64,000 nucleotides of DNA from Nitrososphaerota archaeon (GTDB lineage: Archaea > Thermoproteota > Nitrososphaeria_A > Caldarchaeales > Calditenuaceae), in NCBI GenBank assembly GCA_033581555.1, contig JAVQSZ010000007.1, positions 10,106 through 74,105 on the forward strand, in the 5' to 3' direction. Positions 20,058 to 30,966 of the stretch are shown here, in pieces. The position numbers and the translations under genes were made by a program. The stretch's first letter is position 1; each line of letters begins with the position of its first letter. The notes beneath the pieces were generated by a model. That model made no database searches and was not told where the DNA came from. It saw nothing but the letters and a program-made list of their open reading frames with translations.

Positions 20058-21590
20058 ATGCGACCGGGCGCGGAGTCGGACGTGAGCTCCGTCGACGCCG
20101 ACCTTCTGGAGACGCTGAAGGAGCTGGCCAACGCGTACGGGCCGCCTGCTTGGGAGGAGGACGTCGTGGGGAGGCTCAAGTCGATGACTTCGGGGCTCGC
20201 GGAGAGGACCTGGAGGGACAACTTGGGGAACCTCTTCGTGAAGGTGAGGTCCGGGAGGGGACCGAGGGTGATGCTGGTCGCCCACATGGACGAGGTCGCG
20301 ATGATCGTGAGGCACGTCGACGACTCCGGGTTCCTCCACGTCGCGCCCCTCGGCGGCCTCGACCCCAGGGTCCTGATCGGGCAGAGGGTCGTCGTCCACG
20401 GGAGCGCTCCCGTCGAGGGGTGCGTCGGTGCGAAGCCGCCCCACGTGATGACGCCTGAGGAGATGAAGTCCGTCCCGAGCGTGAAGGAGCTCTACGTCGA
20501 CATCGGGGCATCGAGCAGGGAGGAGGCGAAGGCCCTCGGGATCAGGGTCGGGAGCTTCGTCACGTTCCCACCCAACTTCTCGGTCTCCTCGGGGACCAGG
20601 GTGATCTCGAAGGCCCTTGACGACAGGGCGGGCTGCGCGGCAGCGGTCGAGGTCTCGAGGAGGCTACAGGGCCTCGAGTCCGGCCCGGAGCTCTACGCGG
20701 TCTTCACGGTCCAGGAGGAGCTCGGCCTGAGGGGCGCCTCGGTGATCGTCGAGCAGGTCGAGCCCGACCTCGCGGTGGTGCTGGAGTGCACGGTGGCCGC
20801 CGACGTCCCCGGAACTCCACCTCAGGACCACGTGACCAGACTGGGGCATGGAGCTGCGGTCAGAATGATGGACTCGACGATGCTGACCAACCCGAGGCTC
20901 GTCGGCTGGCTCGCAGGGATCGCGGAGAGGGAGGGCATACCCTACCAGCTCCAGGTGATGACGGGAGGAGGGACCGACGCCGGCAGGATACACATCCAGC
21001 GGAGGGGCGTCCCGACGGTCGTGATCTCCACGCCGTGCAGGTACCTCCACACGCCGAACCTGATGCTCGACCTGAGGGACCTGGAGGCCGTGGTGAGGCT
21101 GACGGTCGCGGCCGCGATGGAGGCGCGGAGGCGCTCAGAGACCCCTCGACCTGAGGAGCCTCTCGATCCTCCTCGCCAGCTTGAAGTCCCGGTCGGTGAG
21201 GCCGCCCTCGTCGTGGGTGGTGAGGGAGATCCTCATCCTCCCGTATCCGAGGGAGACGTCGGGGTGGTGGTTCATCTCGTCCGCGATCTCCGCGATCCTG
21301 CGCAGCAGCCTGACGCCGTCCGTGAAGCCCTCGAGCTTAACGACCCTGTAGATCCTCTTCCCGGTCCTCCTCCAGTTCCTCAGCGGCCTGAGCCTCCGCT
21401 CGACCTCGGCCTCGGAGAGCCTCAACCCGCGGCGATAGGTCGCTCGGCGCACTTAACGGTTCCCCCTGAACAAGGTACCGGAGTCAGGAGGCTCCCCTCA
21501 TCCTCTCGCCGATCTGGCGCTCGAGCTCGTGGAGCTGCTCGTAGAGCCTCCTCAGTCTCGGGTCCGAGTCCGGGGGCGTCACGACCCTGA
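20058..21590 (+). CDS. M42-family (TET/FrvX-like) aminopeptidase. The conserved domain ends near 21130, but the ORF has no in-frame stop until 21590.
   Basis: N-terminal [20 protein letters not shown], then [13 protein letters not shown], then a metal-binding core. The last 150 codons are low-complexity and lie antisense to the PCD and dnaJ genes. Confidence 0.7.
21135..21452 (-). CDS. Pterin-4a-carbinolamine dehydratase (PCD/DCoH)
   Basis: 105 aa with [35 protein letters not shown], the signature of PCD/DCoH. Confidence 0.85.
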   Translation of the reverse strand: MRRATYRRGLRLSEAEVERRLRPLRNWRRTGKRIYRVVKLEGFTDGVRLLRRIAEIADEMNHHPDVSLGYGRMRISLTTHDEGGLTDRDFKLARRIERLLRSRGL

Positions 21591-22566
21591 AGTGGATCAC
21601 CATGTCGCCGCGGCCCCTCAGGCCCTTCCCCTTCAGCCTCACCTCGCCGAGGCCTTGCGGCACCCTGACCTCGATCTGTTCGCCGAGGAACCTGAACCTC
21701 ACCATCGAGCCGAGGAAGGCCTCGCTGGGCGTGACCGGGACCTCGACGTGGACGTCTCCCCCCTCGAGCCTGACGTTCTCCGGGAGCCTCACCCTCAGCC
21801 TGACGTAGACGTCACCTCCGCCCCGGGTCCAGAGCCTCAAGACGTCGCCGTCCGCAGCCTCGGGGGGCACCTCGAACTCGACCTCCTCGAGGACCCTCGA
21901 CCTCCCGGTCCCTCCGCACGCGCCGCAGGCCTTCTCCGCGACCTTGCCCCGCCCGCCGCAGGAACCGCAGGTCGTCGCGACCGTCATGAAGACCGGTCCG
22001 GACCTCCTCCTAGTCACGACGTGGCCGCTCCCGCCGCAGACGCCGCAGACCCTCAACCTCCCTCCCTCGGCCCCGGTTCCGTGGCAGGCGCCGCAGACCC
22101 CTGTCCTCGGGACCCGGACCCTCTTCCTCCCTCCGCGGTAGAGGTCTTGGATGTCGACGTCAACCTCGACCACCGGCCGCTCCTCGGGCTCCGGCCCGAA
22201 CCCGAACCCCAGGCCCCAGTCCCTGAAGAACTTCTCGAAGATCGAGCCGATGTCCCCGAACCCCAGGTCCCTCAGGACCTCCTCGAAGTCCGCCTCCCTC
22301 CCCCTGAAGATGTCCTCAGTCCTCGCGTAGGCCTGGGAGAGTCCCTCGTGGCCGTAGAGGTCGTAGAGCCTCCGCTTCTCGTCGTCCATCAGGACCGCAT
22401 AGGCCTCGCTGATCTCCTTGAACTTCTCCTCCGCATCGGGTGACTTGTTCCTGTCGGGGTGATACTGGAGCGCGAGCCTCCTGTAGGCCCTCTTGATCTC
22501 CTCCTTCGTCGCGTTCCTCGGGACCCCCAGCACCTCGTAGTAGTCCCTCTTCGGCCTGCTGGACAT
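21484..22566 (-). CDS. dnaJ: Chaperone DnaJ (Hsp40)
   Basis: N-terminal J domain (DYYEVLGV...HPDRN) and four CxxCxGxG zinc-finger repeats. 360 aa. Immediately downstream of dnaK. Confidence 0.95.
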
Positions 22567-22603
22567 TATTCCGGAGCGACGTTCCCCGGTGAGCTAATAT
22601 AAC

Positions 22604-24433
22604 TTAACCCGACGCGGGACCGCTCTTCTCTCCCTTCTCCCCGGAAGCCGACGGCGCTGTGCTCTGGTAGATCACCATGCCGATCTCCTGTGCCACCTTC
22701 CGCAAGCTCTCGACCTTCGACTTGATCGCACCAACGTCGTCGCCCTTCGCCGCCTCCCTCAGCTCCCTGACCGCCGCCTCGACCCGTGACCTCAGGTCCG
22801 ATGGGACCCTCTCGCCGTACTCCTTGAGGGCCCTCTCGACCGAGTAGATCAGGGACTCGGCCTCGTTCCTCACCTCGGCCAGCTCCTTCTTCCTCCTGTC
22901 CTGCTCCGCGTACGTCTCGGCCTCCTTGATCATCCTCTCGATCTGCTCCCTCGAGAGCCTGTGGGGCGCGGTTATCTTCGCGCTGATCTCCTTCCCGGTC
23001 CCCAGGTCCTTCGCGGTCACGGTGAGTATCCCGTCGACGTTGATGTCGAAGGTCACCTCGATCCTCGGGACCCCCCTCGGGGCCGGAGGTATTCCGTCCA
23101 GGAGGAGCTTCCCGAGCGAGACGTTGTCCGCGGCCATCGGCCTCTCTCCCTGGACGACGTGGACCACGACCGAGGTCTGGAAGTCCTCTGCGGTCGTGAA
23201 GACCTTGCTCCTCCTCACCGGTATCGTCGTGTTCCTCTCGATGATCGGCTCGACGAGACCTCCGAGGACCTCGACGCCCAGCGTGAGGGGCGTGACGTCG
23301 AGCAGCACTATGTCCTTCCCCTTCAGCTCCCCGGAGATTATCGCTGCCTGGATCGCCGCGCCGATCGCGACCGCCTCCATCGGGTCGACGCCCCTCTCGG
23401 GCTCTTTCCCGATCACCGACTTGATGAACTCCCTGACGATCGGCATCCTCGTCGGGCCCCCGATCAGTATCACCTTGTCGATGTCCTCGGGCCTCATCTT
23501 GGCGTCCGCGAGCGCCTGCATCATCGGGCCCCTGCACCTCTCGATGATCGGCCTCACCAGCTCCTCGAGCTTCGCCCGCGTGAGGGTCATCACGAGGTGC
23601 TTCGGGCCCGTGGAGTCGCTGGCTATGAAGGGCAGGTTGATCTCGGTCTCGTAGACCGTCGAGAGCTCGATCTTGGCCTTCTCCGCGGCCTCCCTCACCC
23701 TGTGCATCGCCATCGGGTCCCTGGTCAGGTCGATCCCGGTCTCAGCCCTGAACCTGCCGACGATGTAGTTGACGATCGCGTCGTCCATGTCCCTCCCCCC
23801 CAACTGCGTGTCTCCGGACGTCGCCCTGACCTCGAAGACGCCTCCTCCCATCTCCATTATCGTCACGTCGAGCGTCCCTCCTCCCAGGTCGAAGACCATG
23901 ATCCTGAGGTCCTGCTCGGCCTTGTCGAGCCCGTAGGCGAGGGCGGCCGCGGTCGGCTCGTTGATGATCCTCACGGCCTCGAGGCCCGCGATCGTGGCCG
24001 CGTCCTTCGTCGCCTGCCTCTGGTTGTCGTTGAAGTAGGCCGGGACCGTTATCACCGCCTTCCTGACCGGTTCGCCGAGGAAGGCCTCCGCGTCCCTCTT
24101 TATCTTCTGGAGGAGGAAGGCCGAGAGCTGCTGGGGCGTATACTCCTTGCCGTGGAGGACGTACCTGTAATCCGTCCCCATCTTCCTCTTGAAGCCCGTG
24201 ACCGTGCCCTCGGGGTTTGTCACCGCCTGCCTCCTCGCAGGTTCCCCGACCAGCAGCTGTCCGTCCTTGGTCACCGCGACGTAGGACGGGAACGCCTTCC
24301 CGTACATCGTGAAGCCCTCGCTGGCGGGTATCATCACCGGCTTCCCGTCGATCACCACCGCCGCGGCCGAGTTGCTGGTCCCCAGGTCTATTCCAATGAC
24401 CCGCTCTGGCACGGCAATCCCCCGTTTCCGCAT
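22604..24433 (-). CDS. dnaK: Chaperone DnaK (Hsp70)
   Basis: 609 aa. [10 protein letters not shown] and DLGGGTLD motifs plus a full substrate-binding domain. Confidence 0.97.
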
Positions 24434-24502: not shown

Positions 24503-25000
24503 ATGAAGTTCCACCCGCTCAGCAAGTCGGACCTGAAGAGGTTGAGGGAGGAGCTCCGGAGCAGGGGGTTCGCGGTCGAGGGGAGGACCGGTGCGGTGCT
24601 CGAGGAGGGGGGAGTGAAGGTGGTCCTGGTCGACGGGAACGCGTTCTTCGAGGAGGCGGGGAGGCTCCTCCCGGTCGCCGACGACAGGATCAACGGCTCC
24701 CTCCTCGCGGCGATGCCCTCGGTCTTCGTCGACGTCGGCGCGGTCAAGCACGTGATCAACGGCGCCTCGGTGATGAGGCCGGGGATCGTGAGGGTCGAGG
24801 GCGAGTTCTCGAAGGGCGACTACGTGGTAGTAAGGGAGGAGAGGGCAGGTCAAGCGATCGCGATCGGCGAGGCGCTGCTCTCGTCCTCGGAGCTGGCTAC
24901 CGTCACGAAGGGGAAGGTGGTCAGGAACGTCCAGCACCACGGCGACGAGGTCCACGAGAGGGCGAAGGAGGCGCTATCCCTTCTCCCCAGAGGGCGCTGA
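24503..25000 (+). CDS. PUA-domain protein (pre-PUA + PUA, archaeal MCT-1/Tma20-like)
   Basis: 165 aa. The C-terminal GASVMRPGIVRVEGEFSKGDYVVV...GEALLSSSEL is a typical PUA fold signature. Confidence 0.6.
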   Translation: MKFHPLSKSDLKRLREELRSRGFAVEGRTGAVLEEGGVKVVLVDGNAFFEEAGRLLPVADDRINGSLLAAMPSVFVDVGAVKHVINGASVMRPGIVRVEGEFSKGDYVVVREERAGQAIAIGEALLSSSELATVTKGKVVRNVQHHGDEVHERAKEALSLLPRGR

Positions 25001-25387
25001 CCTCAGCCTCCTCAGCTCCTCCATCAGCTCGACGTAGGAGGACTTGACGTCGTCGAGGTCCTCGGTCGCCAGAGCCCTCAGGTAGGTGATCGTGAGGCGG
25101 TGGTCCGATGCCCCCGGCCTCAGGAGGGCCTCAAGCAGGCGCCTCCTCAAGGGCCCTCTCGACCCCGATCGAGGACGCGGGGGTATGGCCCCGAAGACCT
25201 CCCTGCAGTCGAAGACCTCGAGCTCTATCAGCCTCCTGAGGGGCTGGCCCTCATCTCCAGCTCCCTTTAGATCCTCCTGATCTCCCTCCGGAGATGCACC
25301 TCATCTTCGCGATCTTCTCCTCCAATAAGTAGCTCGTCCCCAGCCCCTGAACCCGTGGGCGTCGTAAACAGGGTTCCAGTTGAAGAC

Positions 25388-27470
25388 CTAGACGTAGTTC
25401 ACCCCCTCCGCTTCCGAGTCGACCCCGAGGATCTCGTTGACGCTGATCACCCTCATCTCCAGCTTCATCGTCACGGGGTGGAGGACCGCGCTCTGGAGGA
25501 CGGCGCAGTTCAGGTCGTCGATGAAGGCCTTCGGGACGTCGATCGGGTCGCTCATCAGCCTCTGTATCAGTTTCTGGACGCTCCCCGCGTGGAAGGTCGA
25601 GAGACGCCGTGGCCCGTGTCCATGATTGGAAGCGCCGGCCCGGTCCCTCCGACGTAGTAGCTCGCGCCCCTTAGGACGAGGTCGTAGACTTCCGCGGGCC
25701 CGTCGGGCGAGACGTCGTTCACCCACTCGAACCCTCCGCTGGGATAGCAGTAGGCCTCGGTTCCCTCGACGAAGGCCCTCAGGTTCAGCCCTTCCCTCCA
25801 GCCCTCGAAGACGAACCTGACCAGCGAGACGCTCGGCACCCTCCAGTACCTCAGGTACTCGGTCACGCCCCGTCCGAGGAGCTCAGCTTCAACCTCGAGG
25901 TCGACCCGCAGCTCCACCGCCCTCCCCGACCCCACGGAGAACTCCACGCCCGATGCCCTCAGCACCGCCTCGAGCCCGCTCCACCTCAGCGCCTCGCTCC
26001 CGGCCCTGACCCTGAGGGCCCCATTCAGCCCGAGCCTCGAGATGGACCAGACAGCCCAAGCGGCCCTGTTGACGCCGAAGGGGCCCTGGAACCTCTGGCC
26101 CCAGCCCTCCAGCGCGTCCAGTAGGCCCCTGAGGAGCGCGGACCCGTCGCCGACGTCTGTGGAGAGGAGCGCGCCCCAGGCTCTGTGCCCATCGGAGACG
26201 AGGAACCCGGAGGACCTGAGGTGGTGGACGAGCTCGGGCCTTATCCCCCTGAAGACCAGCTGCGTCCTCGCACCCCTCGCTCTCGCGGAAGTCCTCCCGT
26301 CGCAGGCCATCACCGAGTTCACGATCGACCCCAGCTCCGCCGCCTCGCCGGGCCCCCTGACCCTCGAGACCAGCTCGTGCCTCCCGCCCCTCGAGGCGAT
26401 GTAGTCGCCTCCGATCAGCCTCCCGACCAGGTACCAGAACGAGCCGAGCCCGACCGGAGGAGCGCGATCGACGAGGGCCCCAACTGGCCTCCCCCCGCCG
26501 GTGACCTGAGCTCGAGCCTGATGTCCCTGTAGCCGGACATCCAGAGGCTGAGCAGCTCGGAGGCTTCGACCTCGCGGCCGTCAGGGTGGAGGATGAACCT
26601 GTGGTTCGAGGTGACCCTGAGGACCTGGCCGCTCGAGAGCGTGAGCCTCACCGTCTCGGCGGAGCGGAGCCTCCTCAGCCCCACCGCTTCTGCCAGCCAG
26701 ACCTCCCTCGTCCCCGGAGCGGTCGCGTAGACCCCGATCGGATAAGGGAACTCCACGTAGGTCGAGCCGTCGCCCTCCTTCGCCTCGAGGGGCCTGTGCT
26801 GGGCGTAGAGCTCCGAGAGCCAGACAGGACCCCTCTCCGCGAAGACGACCGCGTCCTCGACGCACTGCATCGCCTGGAACGCCACCGACGCCTCCAGGCC
26901 CCTGATCTCGCCGACGATGATGCAGTTGGGCCTCTGCCTAGGCGCGGCCTTTAGGAGGTCGAAGAGCTCGACGCCGCTCGTGCGGGCCTCGCCCTTCCTC
27001 GTCACCTCGCTGACCCAGTTCTCGCTGGGGACGACGATCTCCGGGACGTCCTCGATCGAGACGATCTTCGCGGTCGGCCTGATGAAGACGGCCGCGGCCC
27101 TGAGCAGGGTCGTCTTCCCTGAAGCGGTCTCGCCGCGGAACCAGACGTTCATGTCGCTCTCGAGGAGCGTCCAAAGGTAGGCCGCGTTCTCCGCGCTCAG
27201 GACGTTCCACTTGATCAGCTGAGTTGTGCTGATCGGCGTGTCGGAGAGCTCCCTGATGGTGAAGTTCGAGCACCTCCTGCTGACGTCGGACCCGTAGACG
27301 ATGTTGACCCTGGACCCGTCGGGGAGCTGGGCGTCGACGATGGGGTTTCTTAAGCTGACCGGCCTCCCGCCCCTTATCGAGAGCCTCGGAACGAACCGGT
27401 CGAGCGGGCCCTGCTCTACGCCCGCCACCGACTCACCCCCGGTCCTACCGGAGCGGCCTCGCGATCGCAA
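25388..27470 (-). pseudogene. Interrupted FlaI/VirB11-type ATPase locus: ATPase core, then an intein-like insert, then the C-terminal extein (TGHG / LSTFHAGS...), spread over three reading frames
   Basis: The ATPase motifs are split between ORFs 26415..27470, 25567..26322 (ends ...EVYDLVL...PIMDTGHG) and 25388..25726 (…LSTFHAGSVQKLIQRLMSDPIDVP, the family C-terminus). Each is in a different frame. Confidence 0.5.
26415..27470 (-). CDS. FlaI/VirB11/PilT-family secretion ATPase core, with the start of an intein-like insertion after FQAMQ
   Basis: Walker A GETASGKTT, Walker B IVSIEDVPEI and the family-diagnostic CIIVGEIRGLEA...FQAMQ. It then runs into C-VEDAVVFAERG... and ...GQVLRVTSNHRFILHP (intein block A/B-like). 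TTG start. It lacks the usual N-terminal domain. Confidence 0.7.
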   Translation of the reverse strand: MRSRGRSGRTGGESVAGVEQGPLDRFVPRLSIRGGRPVSLRNPIVDAQLPDGSRVNIVYGSDVSRRCSNFTIRELSDTPISTTQLIKWNVLSAENAAYLWTLLESDMNVWFRGETASGKTTLLRAAAVFIRPTAKIVSIEDVPEIVVPSENWVSEVTRKGEARTSGVELFDLLKAAPRQRPNCIIVGEIRGLEASVAFQAMQCVEDAVVFAERGPVWLSELYAQHRPLEAKEGDGSTYVEFPYPIGVYATAPGTREVWLAEAVGLRRLRSAETVRLTLSSGQVLRVTSNHRFILHPDGREVEASELLSLWMSGYRDIRLELRSPAGGGQLGPSSIALLRSGSARSGTWSGG

Positions 27471-27587
27471 GAATGGGTCGCCGAGAGCTGTGCGACGACG
27501 TCCTCAAGCCAATATCCTATAGATAGTCTATTCATATCATCTCCTGATAGAAAATATTGAGTATTTTACTTTATCCTCGCGATCGCA
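27457..27587. repeat. Perfect 13-bp direct repeat CCTCGCGATCGCA (copies at about 27457-27469 and 27575-27587) bracketing a roughly 105-bp AT-rich segment
   Basis: Read directly from the sequence. The first copy overlaps the TTG start of the ATPase gene. The flanked segment is about 30% GC in a 65% GC genome. Confidence 0.7.
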
Positions 27588-27663
27588 GCGACCGTTGCCT
27601 CTAATATTTAAGTTAGATTTCGCGTCTAAGTCAAAAACGGCCCCTGATGCATAGATTATCTAT
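27519..27663. promoter_or_regulatory. Two copies of the palindrome ATAGA-N3-TCTAT (about 27519-27531 and 27651-27663) in an AT-rich intergenic island. Candidate operator/promoter elements.
   Basis: atagaTAGtctat and atagaTTAtctat, each followed by (t/g)(c/a)a(t/a)atcat. They lie between the 3' end of the DegT gene and the 5' end of the ATPase gene. Confidence 0.4.
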
Positions 27664-28893: not shown

Positions 28894-30966
28894 TTAGCGG
28901 ATCAGGATCCTGACCAGCCTGCTGTCCAGCCTGAGGGGCTCGAAGGGCTTCCCGGAGCCCTCGTAGAACTTGCTGAAGAACTCGTAGAGGTGGAGCCTGA
29001 GGGCCTGGATGAAGGCTAGCGTTCCCTCGAGCGCCATCACGCCGAGGTTCCCTATGACGAGGATCGGGAGGGCCGCGAGCCCGAGGCCGGCGTAGGTCGA
29101 GTTCACGAGGAGCATCAAGGACGCGTGGATCACCATCAGTATAGGGACCCGGAGGTAGCTGAGGGTGTTGGACATGAAGTGGATGATGTTCTCGAGGATC
29201 TCGAGGAGCCCAGCGCCTATCCCGCTGACCAGTGAGGTCTTCGGGCCTATGCCGAGCGCCGAGGAGAGCGGCCTCCCCACCACCAACAGGACCAGGCAGG
29301 CGACGATCCCGTAGAGCGCGACGGTTCCGACTGTGGCGACCGGCAGGCCTATGATGGGGGCGGGCTCGTTCAGCGTAGTCAGTCCCTCGAAGCCTCCCGC
29401 GCCGATGAACGCGATCGCGAAGAGTATCCCCATGAGGTACATGACCATCGTGACGCCCTTGGAGAAGACGGCCTCCCCGAGCTCGCCCTGCTTCGCGTAC
29501 TTGACCGCGCCGAGGAGCATCCCGAGCAGGATGTGGACCGCTCCGAGGAAGGGCGCGAAGGTGAAGAGGGTGAGGACCGCGGCCTGGCTCAGCGTCTTGG
29601 TCCCACCGTGCTTCTCCATCAGCTCTACGACCGGTTTGATACCGGTGTACTCGTAGATCCCGAACCCGAAGGCCTCCTGTATCAAGAAGCCGACCGAGGC
29701 CGCACCCGCGCCGAGGAACGTCAGGAGCTTCCCCCAGGTCCTGAGGTACCCCCTGGCCTTCCTCCAGAGCAGCAGGCCGAGCGTCATGATGACGAGGCCC
29801 TGTCCGAGGTCAGCGAACATGATCCCATAGAAGACGACGATGAAGACCGAGACGAATGGCGTCGGGTCGACCTCGTTGTACCCCGGGACGCCCTGCATCT
29901 TGGTGACGGGGCTGAAGGACTCGACGAGCCTGCCGTGTCTCACCAGCGTCGGGACTTGGTGGCCCGAGTGCCCGCCGTGGTGGCCGTGGACCTCGACCTC
30001 CTCCAGCTCGACGTAGGCCTTCCCCCCCACCGTCCTCAGGAACTCCTCCCTCCTCTCCTCTGGAAGGTAGCCCTCGATCACCACGACCCTCCTCAACCCC
30101 TGCTCCCTCAGCTTGTCCAGGCCCGACCTGAGGCTCTGGGCCAGGTCCCTCAACGCCGCTATCCTCGGCCCTCTCTCGAGCCTGATCTCTGCCATCCGCC
30201 TCTCGACTTCGGCCCTCCTCGACTCGAGGGACTCGATCTCGGCCCGCAGCTTAGCGGCCTCCTCCGCAGGGTCCTCCGGGACCGTCTCGAGCCTCAGGTG
30301 CGCGAGGTTCATCCCCCTAGCTATCCTGAGGACCCTGTCGGCGTCCTGGACCCTCGAGAGCACGAGGACTACCGACTTGCCCTCGCCGATCGGCTGGTCC
30401 GTCACCACGAAGTCCTGAAAGGCCTTCCTGACCTCCTCAACCGCGGAGCTGGGGACGACGAAGACGTTAGCCCTGAGCCTCTTCAGGCCCCTCAGGTGCC
30501 TCGCCTCCCGTCCGAGGACCGTGAGGGCCTCCAGGTCGTCGAGCCTCCTCCTCAGCTCCCTGATCCTCGCGGAGACCTCTTCCTGCTCCTTCCTGAGCCC
30601 CCTCAGCTCCTCGAGCGTCGGCCGGGACTCGGACTCGAGCCTCTCGAGGGCCTCCCTGACCCTGCTCACCTCGACGACCTCCGGGTCAGGCAGGTCGCCC
30701 TTCGTCAGCACCTCCAGCGGCCCCCTTTCCGCGGAGACGTTAAGCTCCCTGACCGCGGCCTCGAGCTCTAGGTAGAGCTCCCTGGCCGTGGCGTAGAGGT
30801 CCTCGAAGTCCTTCAACCTCTCGCCCTCGGACTCCTCGACGTGGAACTCCCCGAACCTGTAGAGCTCGTTGAGGACATCTTCGGCCTTACGTCTCGTCGT
30901 CAATACCCTCGCCTTGACCAGCTTGACTATCCCCATCGCGTCGGCCGGACTTGACGCTCCGTTCAC
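28894..30966 (-). CDS. A/V-type ATP synthase subunit I (membrane a-subunit)
   Basis: 690 aa. N-terminal 330-aa coiled-coil cytoplasmic domain plus a C-terminal multi-TM domain containing the conserved Arg in TLSYLRVPILMVIHASL. Confidence 0.8.
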   Translation of the reverse strand: MNGASSPADAMGIVKLVKARVLTTRRKAEDVLNELYRFGEFHVEESEGERLKDFEDLYATARELYLELEAAVRELNVSAERGPLEVLTKGDLPDPEVVEVSRVREALERLESESRPTLEELRGLRKEQEEVSARIRELRRRLDDLEALTVLGREARHLRGLKRLRANVFVVPSSAVEEVRKAFQDFVVTDQPIGEGKSVVLVLSRVQDADRVLRIARGMNLAHLRLETVPEDPAEEAAKLRAEIESLESRRAEVERRMAEIRLERGPRIAALRDLAQSLRSGLDKLREQGLRRVVVIEGYLPEERREEFLRTVGGKAYVELEEVEVHGHHGGHSGHQVPTLVRHGRLVESFSPVTKMQGVPGYNEVDPTPFVSVFIVVFYGIMFADLGQGLVIMTLGLLLWRKARGYLRTWGKLLTFLGAGAASVGFLIQEAFGFGIYEYTGIKPVVELMEKHGGTKTLSQAAVLTLFTFAPFLGAVHILLGMLLGAVKYAKQGELGEAVFSKGVTMVMYLMGILFAIAFIGAGGFEGLTTLNEPAPIIGLPVATVGTVALYGIVACLVLLVVGRPLSSALGIGPKTSLVSGIGAGLLEILENIIHFMSNTLSYLRVPILMVIHASLMLLVNSTYAGLGLAALPILVIGNLGVMALEGTLAFIQALRLHLYEFFSKFYEGSGKPFEPLRLDSRLVRILIR

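Follow-up and report, generated by a model that had tools for sequence, protein, structure and literature searches.

Both inteins in ATPases of the VirB11/FlaI family and inteins ending in Asp have already been documented, so the kind of element discussed below is known. The survey by Novikova et al. lists 21 inteins in archaeal COG0630 (VirB11/FlaI) ATPases (PMC4760082). Inteins ending in Asp, Gln or Glu are described as following the same splicing pathway, in which it is that residue which cyclises (PMC4031507). The present analysis concerns a 64,000-nucleotide (nt) stretch of contig JAVQSZ010000007.1 (assembly GCA_033581555.1), hereafter the window, whose positions serve as coordinates; the feature under study lies on its minus strand. 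Positions 24974-27660 very probably represent what is left of an archaellum operon (arl/fla) in the genome of a member of the Caldarchaeales, comprising a fragment of the ATPase gene arlI and its intein, with the host gene reduced to a pseudogene. The Caldarchaeales correspond to the 'Aigarchaeota' and are filed at NCBI as Nitrososphaerota. According to the open reading frame (ORF) listing and three-frame translation, the FlaI/ArlI ATPase fragment runs from 27428 to 25131 in shifting frames, and a 416-codon intein interrupts its FQAMQ/TGH motif.

As with FlaI/ArlI of S. acidocaldarius (4ii7) and the crenarchaeal arl operon, the intact homologues of the window gene are FlaI orthologues encoded beside ArlH and ArlJ. 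Unlike S. acidocaldarius FlaI, the window copy lacks the first ~211 residues, is frameshifted and has had its operon partners deleted. The host of the intein is a secretion-superfamily P-loop ATPase, as in KlbA-type inteins, and the profile of the intein family weakly matches KlbA (2jmz, E = 0.022). However, in KlbA-type class 2 inteins position 1 is Ala, G:6 is Ser, G:7 is Asn and position +1 is Cys (PMC4031507), whereas this family has Cys1, Met, Glu or Gln at G:6, Asp at G:7 and Thr+1. Class 2 identity was rejected on the Cys1, the Met at G:6 and the Thr+1 of the window intein. Class 1 inteins without terminal Asn (Pab and Mma Pol II and CIV RNR with Gln, others with Asp) likewise possess nucleophiles at positions 1 and +1 and a cyclisable terminal residue (PMC4031507). 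Judging from the alignment, the family differs from these in a terminal Asp that is invariant across ~20 homologues and in the loss of both assisting histidines (Tyr at F:13; Met, Glu or Gln at G:6).

The intein pseudogene Arsp-FB24 Arth_1007 (Tori & Perler 2011, PMC3196547) is likewise an intein left only with stubs of its host. It has lost catalytic residues and does not splice, whereas the copies in two relic strains related to the window (contigs L001 and L008) keep all family-invariant residues and an open frame of 620 codons. Literature searches on inteins with FlaI or archaellum found no paper on this intein, a result that does not extend to the insertion sites of the 21 COG0630 inteins of Novikova et al.

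Host gene and layout of the locus

A sequence-only reading of the window had described a FlaI/VirB11-type ATPase without its N-terminal domain, spread over three frames and interrupted at the Q/TGH site by an intein-like insertion. These assignments hold on all points, and the peptide strings quoted there are all present on the minus strand in three frames. ORF 27470-26415 encodes the ATPase core (...CIIVGEIRGLEASVAFQAMQ) with Walker A GETASGKT and Walker B CIIVGEIRG, ending in FQAMQ; directly afterwards the same ORF continues with C-VEDAVVFAERG (CVEDAVVFAERG...) and then ...VTSNHRFILHPDGREV / ...RVTSNHRFILHPDGREV. The segment EVYDLVL...PIMD-TGHG (EVYDLVLRGASYYVGGTGPALPIMD-TGHG) lies within ORF 26322-25567, and LSTFHAGSVQKLIQRL...VISVNEILGV within ORF 25726-25388. 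Walking the frames past 25388 gives ...GVNYV, an interruption by TAG at 25390-25388 and VFNWNPVYDAHGF; then TSYLLEEKIAKMR, REIRRI-stop-RELEMRA, LRRLIELEVFDCREVF and SIGVERALEE follow in changing frames, up to the original TGA at 25133-25131. The feature had been bounded at 25388-27470; it extends to about 25131, and its true start has to be placed at the GTG of position 27428 instead of the TTG of position 27470. Both the NCBI and the Logan ORF calls (P0126, P0001) begin at this GTG.

The frame-corrected translation was searched against about 5.8 billion proteins, and four groups of homologues were informative. The first is P0001, a protein of 620 amino acids (aa) from a Logan assembly (97% identity), and the second P0002, 690 aa, from an NCBI Caldarchaeales metagenome-assembled genome (MAG; 87% identity). 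The third comprises 935-986-aa 'Aigarchaeota/Nitrososphaerota' proteins with 45-58% identity across 97% of the query (E about 1e-227 for the 986-aa homologues). The fourth consists of hundreds of intein-less FlaI proteins of ~565 aa, 65-79% identical over the extein part. Together with the profile match to solved inteins and the extein alignment given below, this homology puts the reading far beyond chance.

For P0003, an intact homologue, the best solved match is S. acidocaldarius FlaI 4ii7 (E = 2e-128), and its score of 602 bits exceeds the 550-bit cut-off of the NCBIfam FlaI equivalog NF058587. Once the insert is removed, the window exteins align to the same model in one colinear stretch (positions 192-524 of 527) with 442 bits, which is below the cut-off; model positions 1-191 are absent. 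The host is identified as ArlI/FlaI because of the two P0003 matches and this extein alignment. Pfam T2SSE matches the N-extein fragment (E = 2e-20). A Pfam scan of the three raw ORFs gave only T2SSE and a sub-threshold Intein_splicing match, with no match for the middle ORF; the family was established through homologues instead. NCBI lists the pieces as ordinary proteins, MDW8043778.1 ('ATPase, T2SS/T4P/T4SS family', 337 aa) and MDW8043777.1 (hypothetical, 251 aa). The parts of the locus are as follows.

27429..27660, minus strand: retained 5' intergenic region of the former archaellum operon (A/T-rich, TATA-like block, conserved palindrome)
27405..27428, minus strand: start of the first operon gene (150 aa in L002), with its GTG and 8 initial codons, joined in frame to codon ~212 of arlI (blastn breakpoints, junction sequence)
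26865..27404, minus strand: ArlI/FlaI N-extein fragment, 180 codons, with Walker A at 27134-27111 and Walker B at 26924-26898 (T2SSE, NCBIfam FlaI)
25618..26864, minus strand: intein, 416 codons with one base restored (alignment to intact homologues, profile matches to solved inteins)
25725..26460, minus strand: putative LAGLIDADG-like middle domain of the intein (AlphaFold2 model, weak Foldseek matches in the PDB)
26458, minus strand: 1-nt deletion in the intein, frameshift 1 (in L009; not in L001, L008 or L002)
25131..25617, minus strand: ArlI C-extein remnant, TGHG...LSTFHAGS... to the original TGA (codon map against L002, frame walk, L001)
25056..25150, minus strand: arlJ/flaJ stub, first ~32 codons (tblastn of L002 ArlJ residues 12-43)
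24974..25056, minus strand: junction of deletion B (25045-25056) and last ~23 codons of the 144-aa terminal operon gene (blastn, junction sequence, tblastn)

Insertion site and intein family

The 986-aa proteins read ...FQAMQ/CVDDAL...YDLVLEGGSYYMAGEGPVLPLMD/TGHGVISTFHAGS..., and the intein-less P0026 reads FQAMQTGHPVLATFHAGS (FQAMQTGHPV). This comparison places the insert between the Q and the T of the TGH box, the 'His box' of secretion-superfamily ATPases, and removal of the insert restores a colinear host protein at this conserved motif. The uninterrupted site ...TTCCAGGCGATGCAG/ACGGGCCAC... belongs to the P0026- or P0019-type allele.

In the window intein, Cys1 is present, block B reads TSNH where the family has TPNH, block F reads YDLVLRGASYY, and the PIMD end is followed by Thr+1. 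In the alignment of about 20 homologues carrying the insert, Cys1 is near-invariant, block B reads V-T-P-N-H-R/K-F and thus contains TxxH, and block F (YDLVLEGGxYY) has Asp at F:4 and Tyr instead of His at F:13. The C-terminus is an invariant Asp after Met, Glu or Gln at G:6, followed by Thr+1, and the ~20 homologues end in M/E/Q-D/TGH. Block G lacks the usual His-Asn end, the window intein ending in Met-Asp. This MD was correctly noted in the sequence-only reading as standing in place of HN, but it was counted there among signs of corruption; its conservation in intact members indicates that it is native to the family and not a product of decay. Judged by its motifs, the intein is of ordinary class 1 type in outline (Cys1, TxxH, Asp at F:4, Thr+1), in a family that natively ends in Asp, not Asn, and does without the usual His at G:6 and F:13. 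Splicing would proceed through Asp cyclisation, by analogy with published work on other inteins.

Among solved inteins, the family profile best matches the VMA mini-intein 4o1s (E = 2e-13), and it also matches other VMA inteins, Pho RadA, Pol II, CDC21 and KlbA. Pfam Intein_splicing stays below threshold for the insert (13-20 bits). The family includes a mini-intein of 162 aa (P0092), which has the same kind of ending, and Caldisphaera members (P0118). A scan of JGI metagenome contigs with P0001 gave no match, and a genome-contig scan with P0001 returned only the L002 contig again.

A different, canonical intein of 260 aa (Ser1...His-Asn, strong Pfam Intein_splicing match) occupies the same FQAMQ/TGH site in another FlaI, P0065 (830 aa). 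Hence at least two inteins of no relation to each other have entered this one site. Another member of the present family, P0018 (767 aa), looks independently decayed, with Tyr for Cys1, TGAGV for TGHGV after the intein, and a scrambled and truncated N-terminus; its ORF is nonetheless open through the intein.

Middle domain of the intein

The region 26460-25618 was modelled with AlphaFold2 using 18 homologues. The middle domain (mean pLDDT 80, pTM 0.81) has a first half predicted as alpha-beta-beta-alpha-beta-beta-alpha and a second half that is similar but less regular. The top Foldseek matches in the PDB are almost all LAGLIDADG enzymes, with weak scores (best E = 0.012, TM 0.3-0.5); they include I-Tsp061I, I-DmoI, I-OnuI, I-SceI, WhiA and the TliVMA intein endonuclease. 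Of the two putative LAGLIDADG helices, the first is FWYLVGRLIGG-D (FWYLVGRLIGGD) and the second LLRGLLDAL-E-G. Two degenerate motifs had been suggested from the sequence alone; LLRGLLDALEG does correspond to the second helix, whereas SGFLVSDGH does not form the first. The acidic residue ending each helix (...LIGG-D, ...DAL-E-G) is present in the window, L001 and the 986-aa clade. In the first helix it is nearly invariant across the family; in the second it is kept only in the window and 986-aa clades, the motif being degenerate further out.

No Pfam LAGLIDADG family matched in searches at E <= 0.1-1. A phmmer search with the middle domain against 1.84 billion representatives found five proteins, of which the best four are FlaI-type ATPases bearing this intein. 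The model weakly suggests that the middle domain is LAGLIDADG-like and might be a homing endonuclease.

The ancestral operon and two large deletions

The locus was compared with contigs L001 (encoding P0001), L002 (P0002; MAG GCA_039630085.1) and L004 (P0004), of which L002 is roughly 90% identical to the window and L004 more distant. In L002 and L004, the genes for V-ATPase subunit I and DegT are followed in the same order by arl genes and then by a convergent gene for a PUA-domain protein. The arl genes are a 150/196-aa gene, a 160-aa archaellin-fold protein that weakly matches ArlF/ArlG, a 168-aa protein, ArlH, the intein-bearing ArlI, ArlJ and a protein of ~145 aa (144 aa in L002). ArlH of this type of operon scores 215 bits against the FlaH model (cut-off 194), and the 492-aa protein of L002 matches the NCBIfam ArlJ/FlaJ model with E = 9e-45. 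Near L002 position 12034, a 7-nt deletion in the endonuclease-like domain of the intein splits the ArlI of this otherwise intact operon into ORFs of 690 and 273 aa; the L002 exteins show no drift, so the deletion must be very recent, or else the assembly is in error.

The window and L002 share ~90% identity on both flanks and differ by exactly two gaps, of 2,924 and 1,730 base pairs (bp). Deletion A corresponds to L002 7709-10632 (2,924 bp; blastn breakpoints 7708 and 10633), with the window junction at ~27404/27405. It joins codon 8 of the first gene, which starts with the GTG at 27428, in frame to arlI codon ~212, and it is because of this deletion that the N-terminal domain is missing, the N-terminal 211 codons of arlI being gone. 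Deletion B corresponds to L002 12993-14722 (1,730 bp; blastn breakpoints 12992 and 14723) and has CGTCA microhomologies at its edges. Through it the ~32-35 first arlJ codons now run into the closing 23 codons of the final gene, which gives a 58-aa ORF at 25150-24974. The context of arlH and arlJ around arlI, present in L002 and L004, is thus reduced in the window to ~32 arlJ codons, with no arlH. As to archaellum genes elsewhere, for which a search had been proposed, the 64-kb window holds no other arl gene and no FlaI paralogue.

The ancestral locus between the DegT and PUA genes encoded small archaellin-fold (ArlF/G-like) proteins, ArlH, ArlI, ArlJ and the 144-aa protein, and its arlI already bore the ~416-aa intein between the Q and T of FQAMQ/TGH. 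Deletion A took out everything from codon 9 of the first gene through arlI codon ~211, and deletion B nearly all of arlJ and of the last gene. The remaining arlI subsequently lost single bases at six places, gained two stop codons and changed at many residues that are invariant elsewhere. A functional ATPase cannot be made from the window copy.

Decay of the host gene

The lesions were defined by base-level and codon-by-codon alignment to L002. The sequence-only reading had counted at least two frameshifts and left the choice between assembly error and decaying pseudogene undecided. Frameshifts are indeed present, and their number is corrected to six 1-nt deletions (26458, 25603, 25343, 25287, 25245 and 25184), accompanied by two in-frame stops that arose by substitution, the TAG at 25390-25388 (GAG->TAG) and a TAA at 25269-25267 (TAC->TAA). 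L001, which comes from a different run, is 99.4% identical to the window over 18.3 kb and carries the two large deletions, the two stops and five of the 1-nt deletions; of the six, only that at 26458 is missing. A third relic strain, L008, a Logan assembly of another run, has mostly the same lesions as L001 and its 620-codon ORF is open. The 26458 deletion recurs in L009, a Logan contig of a further run that is 99.93% identical to the window and aligns without gaps. Since the lesions recur in the independent assemblies L001, L008 and L009, the gene is a decaying pseudogene and the alternative of assembly error falls away.

Placement of the first frameshift at the G6 run near 26490 was ruled out, as alignment to P0001, L001 and L002 puts it at 26458. 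That the gene is intact in the organism and that its frameshifts are sequencing or assembly errors of the MAG is highly improbable. This explanation could draw on the three 1-nt deletions that the window shows relative to L001 over the 18.3 kb, one of them being the 26458 deletion, the first frameshift noted earlier. The suspicion of a sequencing error at 26458 was rejected because L009 has the same deletion, and also because the three deletions sit at tolerant positions (intergenic, in the last 8 codons of a gene, and in the pseudogene). The other small lesions and the two kb-scale deletions recur unchanged in L001, and for the most part in L008 as well; the stops stem from base substitution and not from indel error; and the N-terminal codons and neighbouring operon genes are physically gone.

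Drift at conserved residues also speaks against an intact gene. Among 121 extein columns with at least 95% conservation in 107 homologues, 8 are changed in the window and 1 in L002. Altered motifs include RRGSNF->RRCSNF, IRKF->IREL, VPHENW->VPSENW and KAALRQ->KAAPRQ. With the 986-aa clade as reference, polarised amino-acid changes in the window and L002 lineages number 15:0 in the N-extein and 16:1 in the C-extein.

All six shifts go in one direction (-1), as might be expected if a functional ATPase were still made through programmed ribosomal frameshifting or as a split protein. Yet the sites have no slippery or homopolymer context, two in-frame stops interrupt the reading, the N-terminal domain, arlH and arlJ are deleted, and the protein no longer has certain invariant residues (RRGSNF with G->C, VPHENW with H->S, KAALRQ with L->P). 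Programmed -1 frameshifting was rejected on the stops, the missing domains and the non-slippery contexts, and production of an ATPase in this manner is next to impossible.

Uneven decay of exteins and intein

The 7 lesions common to the relic strains are all confined to the 487 bp of the C-extein tail; the stretch of 1,811 bp between the GTG at 27428 and the end of the intein, a single 620-codon ORF in L001 and L008, is free of them (binomial p about 2e-5). This 1.8-kb ORF of N-extein and intein is therefore open in 2 of 3 relic strains. Polarised amino-acid drift is equal in both exteins (15 of 180 sites in the N-extein, 16 of 157 in the C-extein).

The ratio of non-synonymous to synonymous substitution rates (dN/dS) was calculated for the window against L002, with the three intact pairs among P0003, P0004 and P0007 as baseline.

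N-extein: 0.34 for window against L002; 0.02-0.04 for intact pairs
C-extein: 0.46 for window against L002; 0.08-0.11 for intact pairs
Intein: 0.23 for window against L002; 0.19-0.32 for intact pairs

Extein dN/dS is thus raised 5-10-fold, while the intein is at its normal level. By a simple calculation, an intein neutral for as long as the N-extein would be expected to show a dN of 0.08-0.11, against the observed 0.060. Polymorphisms among the three relic strains represent changes that arose after the relic formed.

Intein: 7 synonymous, 6 non-synonymous, and in addition the window's frameshift
N-extein: 0 synonymous, 9 non-synonymous
DegT: 6 synonymous, 1 non-synonymous
V-ATPase subunit I: 16 synonymous, 5 non-synonymous

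The ratio of non-synonymous to synonymous changes in the intein differs from that of the N-extein (Fisher p = 0.017). Substitutions are about 4-fold rarer in the intein (12 in 1,247 bp) than in the tail and upstream intergenic region (25 in 715 bp; p = 2e-4). These counts suggest that the N-extein frame and the intein protein were preserved after the host gene died, and the intein appears to have been kept for its own sake until very recently. The unevenness of the decay is a statistical result, from which we only infer its cause.

The exteins have drifted like neutral sequence, while the frame of N-extein and intein stayed open behind the promoter and start codon of the operon and the intein remained constrained in its amino-acid sequence. 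It is tentatively proposed that, after loss of the operon, the intein with its LAGLIDADG-like domain was kept as an expressed and selected ORF in its own right, deletion A having fused it behind the surviving promoter. The yeast HO endonuclease, an intein-derived, free-standing LAGLIDADG enzyme, offers a precedent for an intein and its endonuclease outlasting the host protein; unlike the window intein, it has a known cellular role.

Several observations weigh against this account of the relic. The window intein is itself broken, by the 26458 frameshift and a P->S change in block B, so that the constraint is not absolute. The evidence for selection rests on 13 polymorphisms in three closely related strains. 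Expression of the relic ORF is assumed from the retained promoter-like region, and the upstream intergenic region as a whole is highly polymorphic. The endonuclease assignment is weak, with Foldseek E values of at least 0.012 and no Pfam match. The intein of L002 also carries its 7-nt deletion, whether that locus is newly broken or the MAG is in error.

A further explanation, which is conceivable but falls short of an even chance, takes the whole relic, intein included, for neutral junk, and ascribes the concentration of lesions in the tail, like the low dN/dS of the intein, to chance or to a local mutational effect such as error-prone repair at deletion B. Every indel in the tail is of the -1 type and lies no more than ~420 bp from the junction of deletion B; at a generic indel-to-substitution ratio of ~0.1 (our estimate), zero indels in the N-extein alone is not significant; and the intein of the window strain has since broken. 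However, the tail indels are still polymorphic among the relic strains (25406 and 25343 differ in L008), which argues that they gathered over time and weakens the case for a single error-prone repair event. The density of polarised amino-acid changes in the tail equals that in the N-extein, so the tail is not hypermutated. Nor does neutrality fit an intein dN/dS at the baseline of intact genes beside raised extein values, or the differing proportions of non-synonymous polymorphism in intein and N-extein.

It is unlikely that the intein was recently copied into an already decayed arlI relic, through homing or homologous recombination from an intact allele. The exteins do look old, having drifted, and the intein fresh; intein dS against L002 (0.27) exceeds extein dS (0.15), hinting at a different history; and intein-less (P0019, P0026) and intein-bearing (P0003-P0017) arlI alleles coexist in related lineages. 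Against such a re-import, L002 and the distant 986-aa clade carry the same intein at the same site and syntenic locus, which fits vertical inheritance, and a one-off import does not explain why polymorphisms that arose after relic formation are still synonymous-rich in the intein.

Upstream region and neighbouring genes

The G+C content drops to 0.47-0.54 in 27429..27660. Its counterpart in an alignment with L002 and L004 is the stretch upstream of their first arl gene, with the blocks AAATACTCAATATTTTCT and ATAGACTGTCTAT conserved; conservation of the promoter-like A/T block and of the palindrome ATAGACTGTCTAT, both upstream of the GTG, reaches as far as the distant L004. L002 and most relic strains, unlike L004, retain a Shine-Dalgarno-like GGGGGTGA upstream of the GTG. 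Two copies of a 13-nt direct repeat CCTCGCGATCGCA, which holds the palindrome GCGATCGC, lie in the former arl promoter region at 27457-27469 and 27575-27587. The separate palindrome at ~27516-27536, that of the second block, is conserved in L001, L008, L002 and L004, with a G->A mutation in the window. The repeat and the palindromes are possible operator sites of the archaellum operon.

In the ORF at 20058-21590 (plus strand), the window has one base fewer than L001 at 21128, 26 nt before the stop of a gene for an M42-family peptidase. As a result the last 8 codons are replaced, and the ORF grows from 357 codons to 510 and enters the convergent DnaJ gene; the change is a genuine C-terminal frameshift or else an error. 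DnaK and/or DnaJ genes adjoin the PUA gene in the window (21484-24433), L001 and L002. In the window and L001, chaperone genes lie between the PUA and pterin-4a-dehydratase genes, and in L004 these two are adjacent, which amounts to a chaperone indel between clades. The gene for V-ATPase subunit I (28894-30966) shows a 30-nt in-frame length polymorphism, the protein of the window and of L001 having 690 aa and that of L008 and of L002 having 680 aa.

Implications

As a gene call, the locus is of little weight: a pseudogene listed at NCBI as two ordinary proteins. In this Caldarchaeales lineage the relic marks a loss of motility. It also draws attention to a coherent and well-populated family of Asp-terminal inteins in archaellum ATPases, lacking both assisting histidines, which surveys of cultured organisms have apparently sampled little. 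The natural full-size and mini (162 aa) versions of this family provide material for studying how Asp cyclisation is catalysed.

The relic also amounts to a test, set up by nature, of whether an intein or a homing endonuclease can persist without a host protein to rescue. If the drift of the exteins but not of the intein holds in more strains, it would bear on the debate as to whether inteins are purely parasitic or selected. Should the proposal of a retained, selected intein ORF be true, the locus would show an intein in the course of surviving its host gene, whether as a selfish element that is still infectious or in transition to a free-standing gene of the HO kind.

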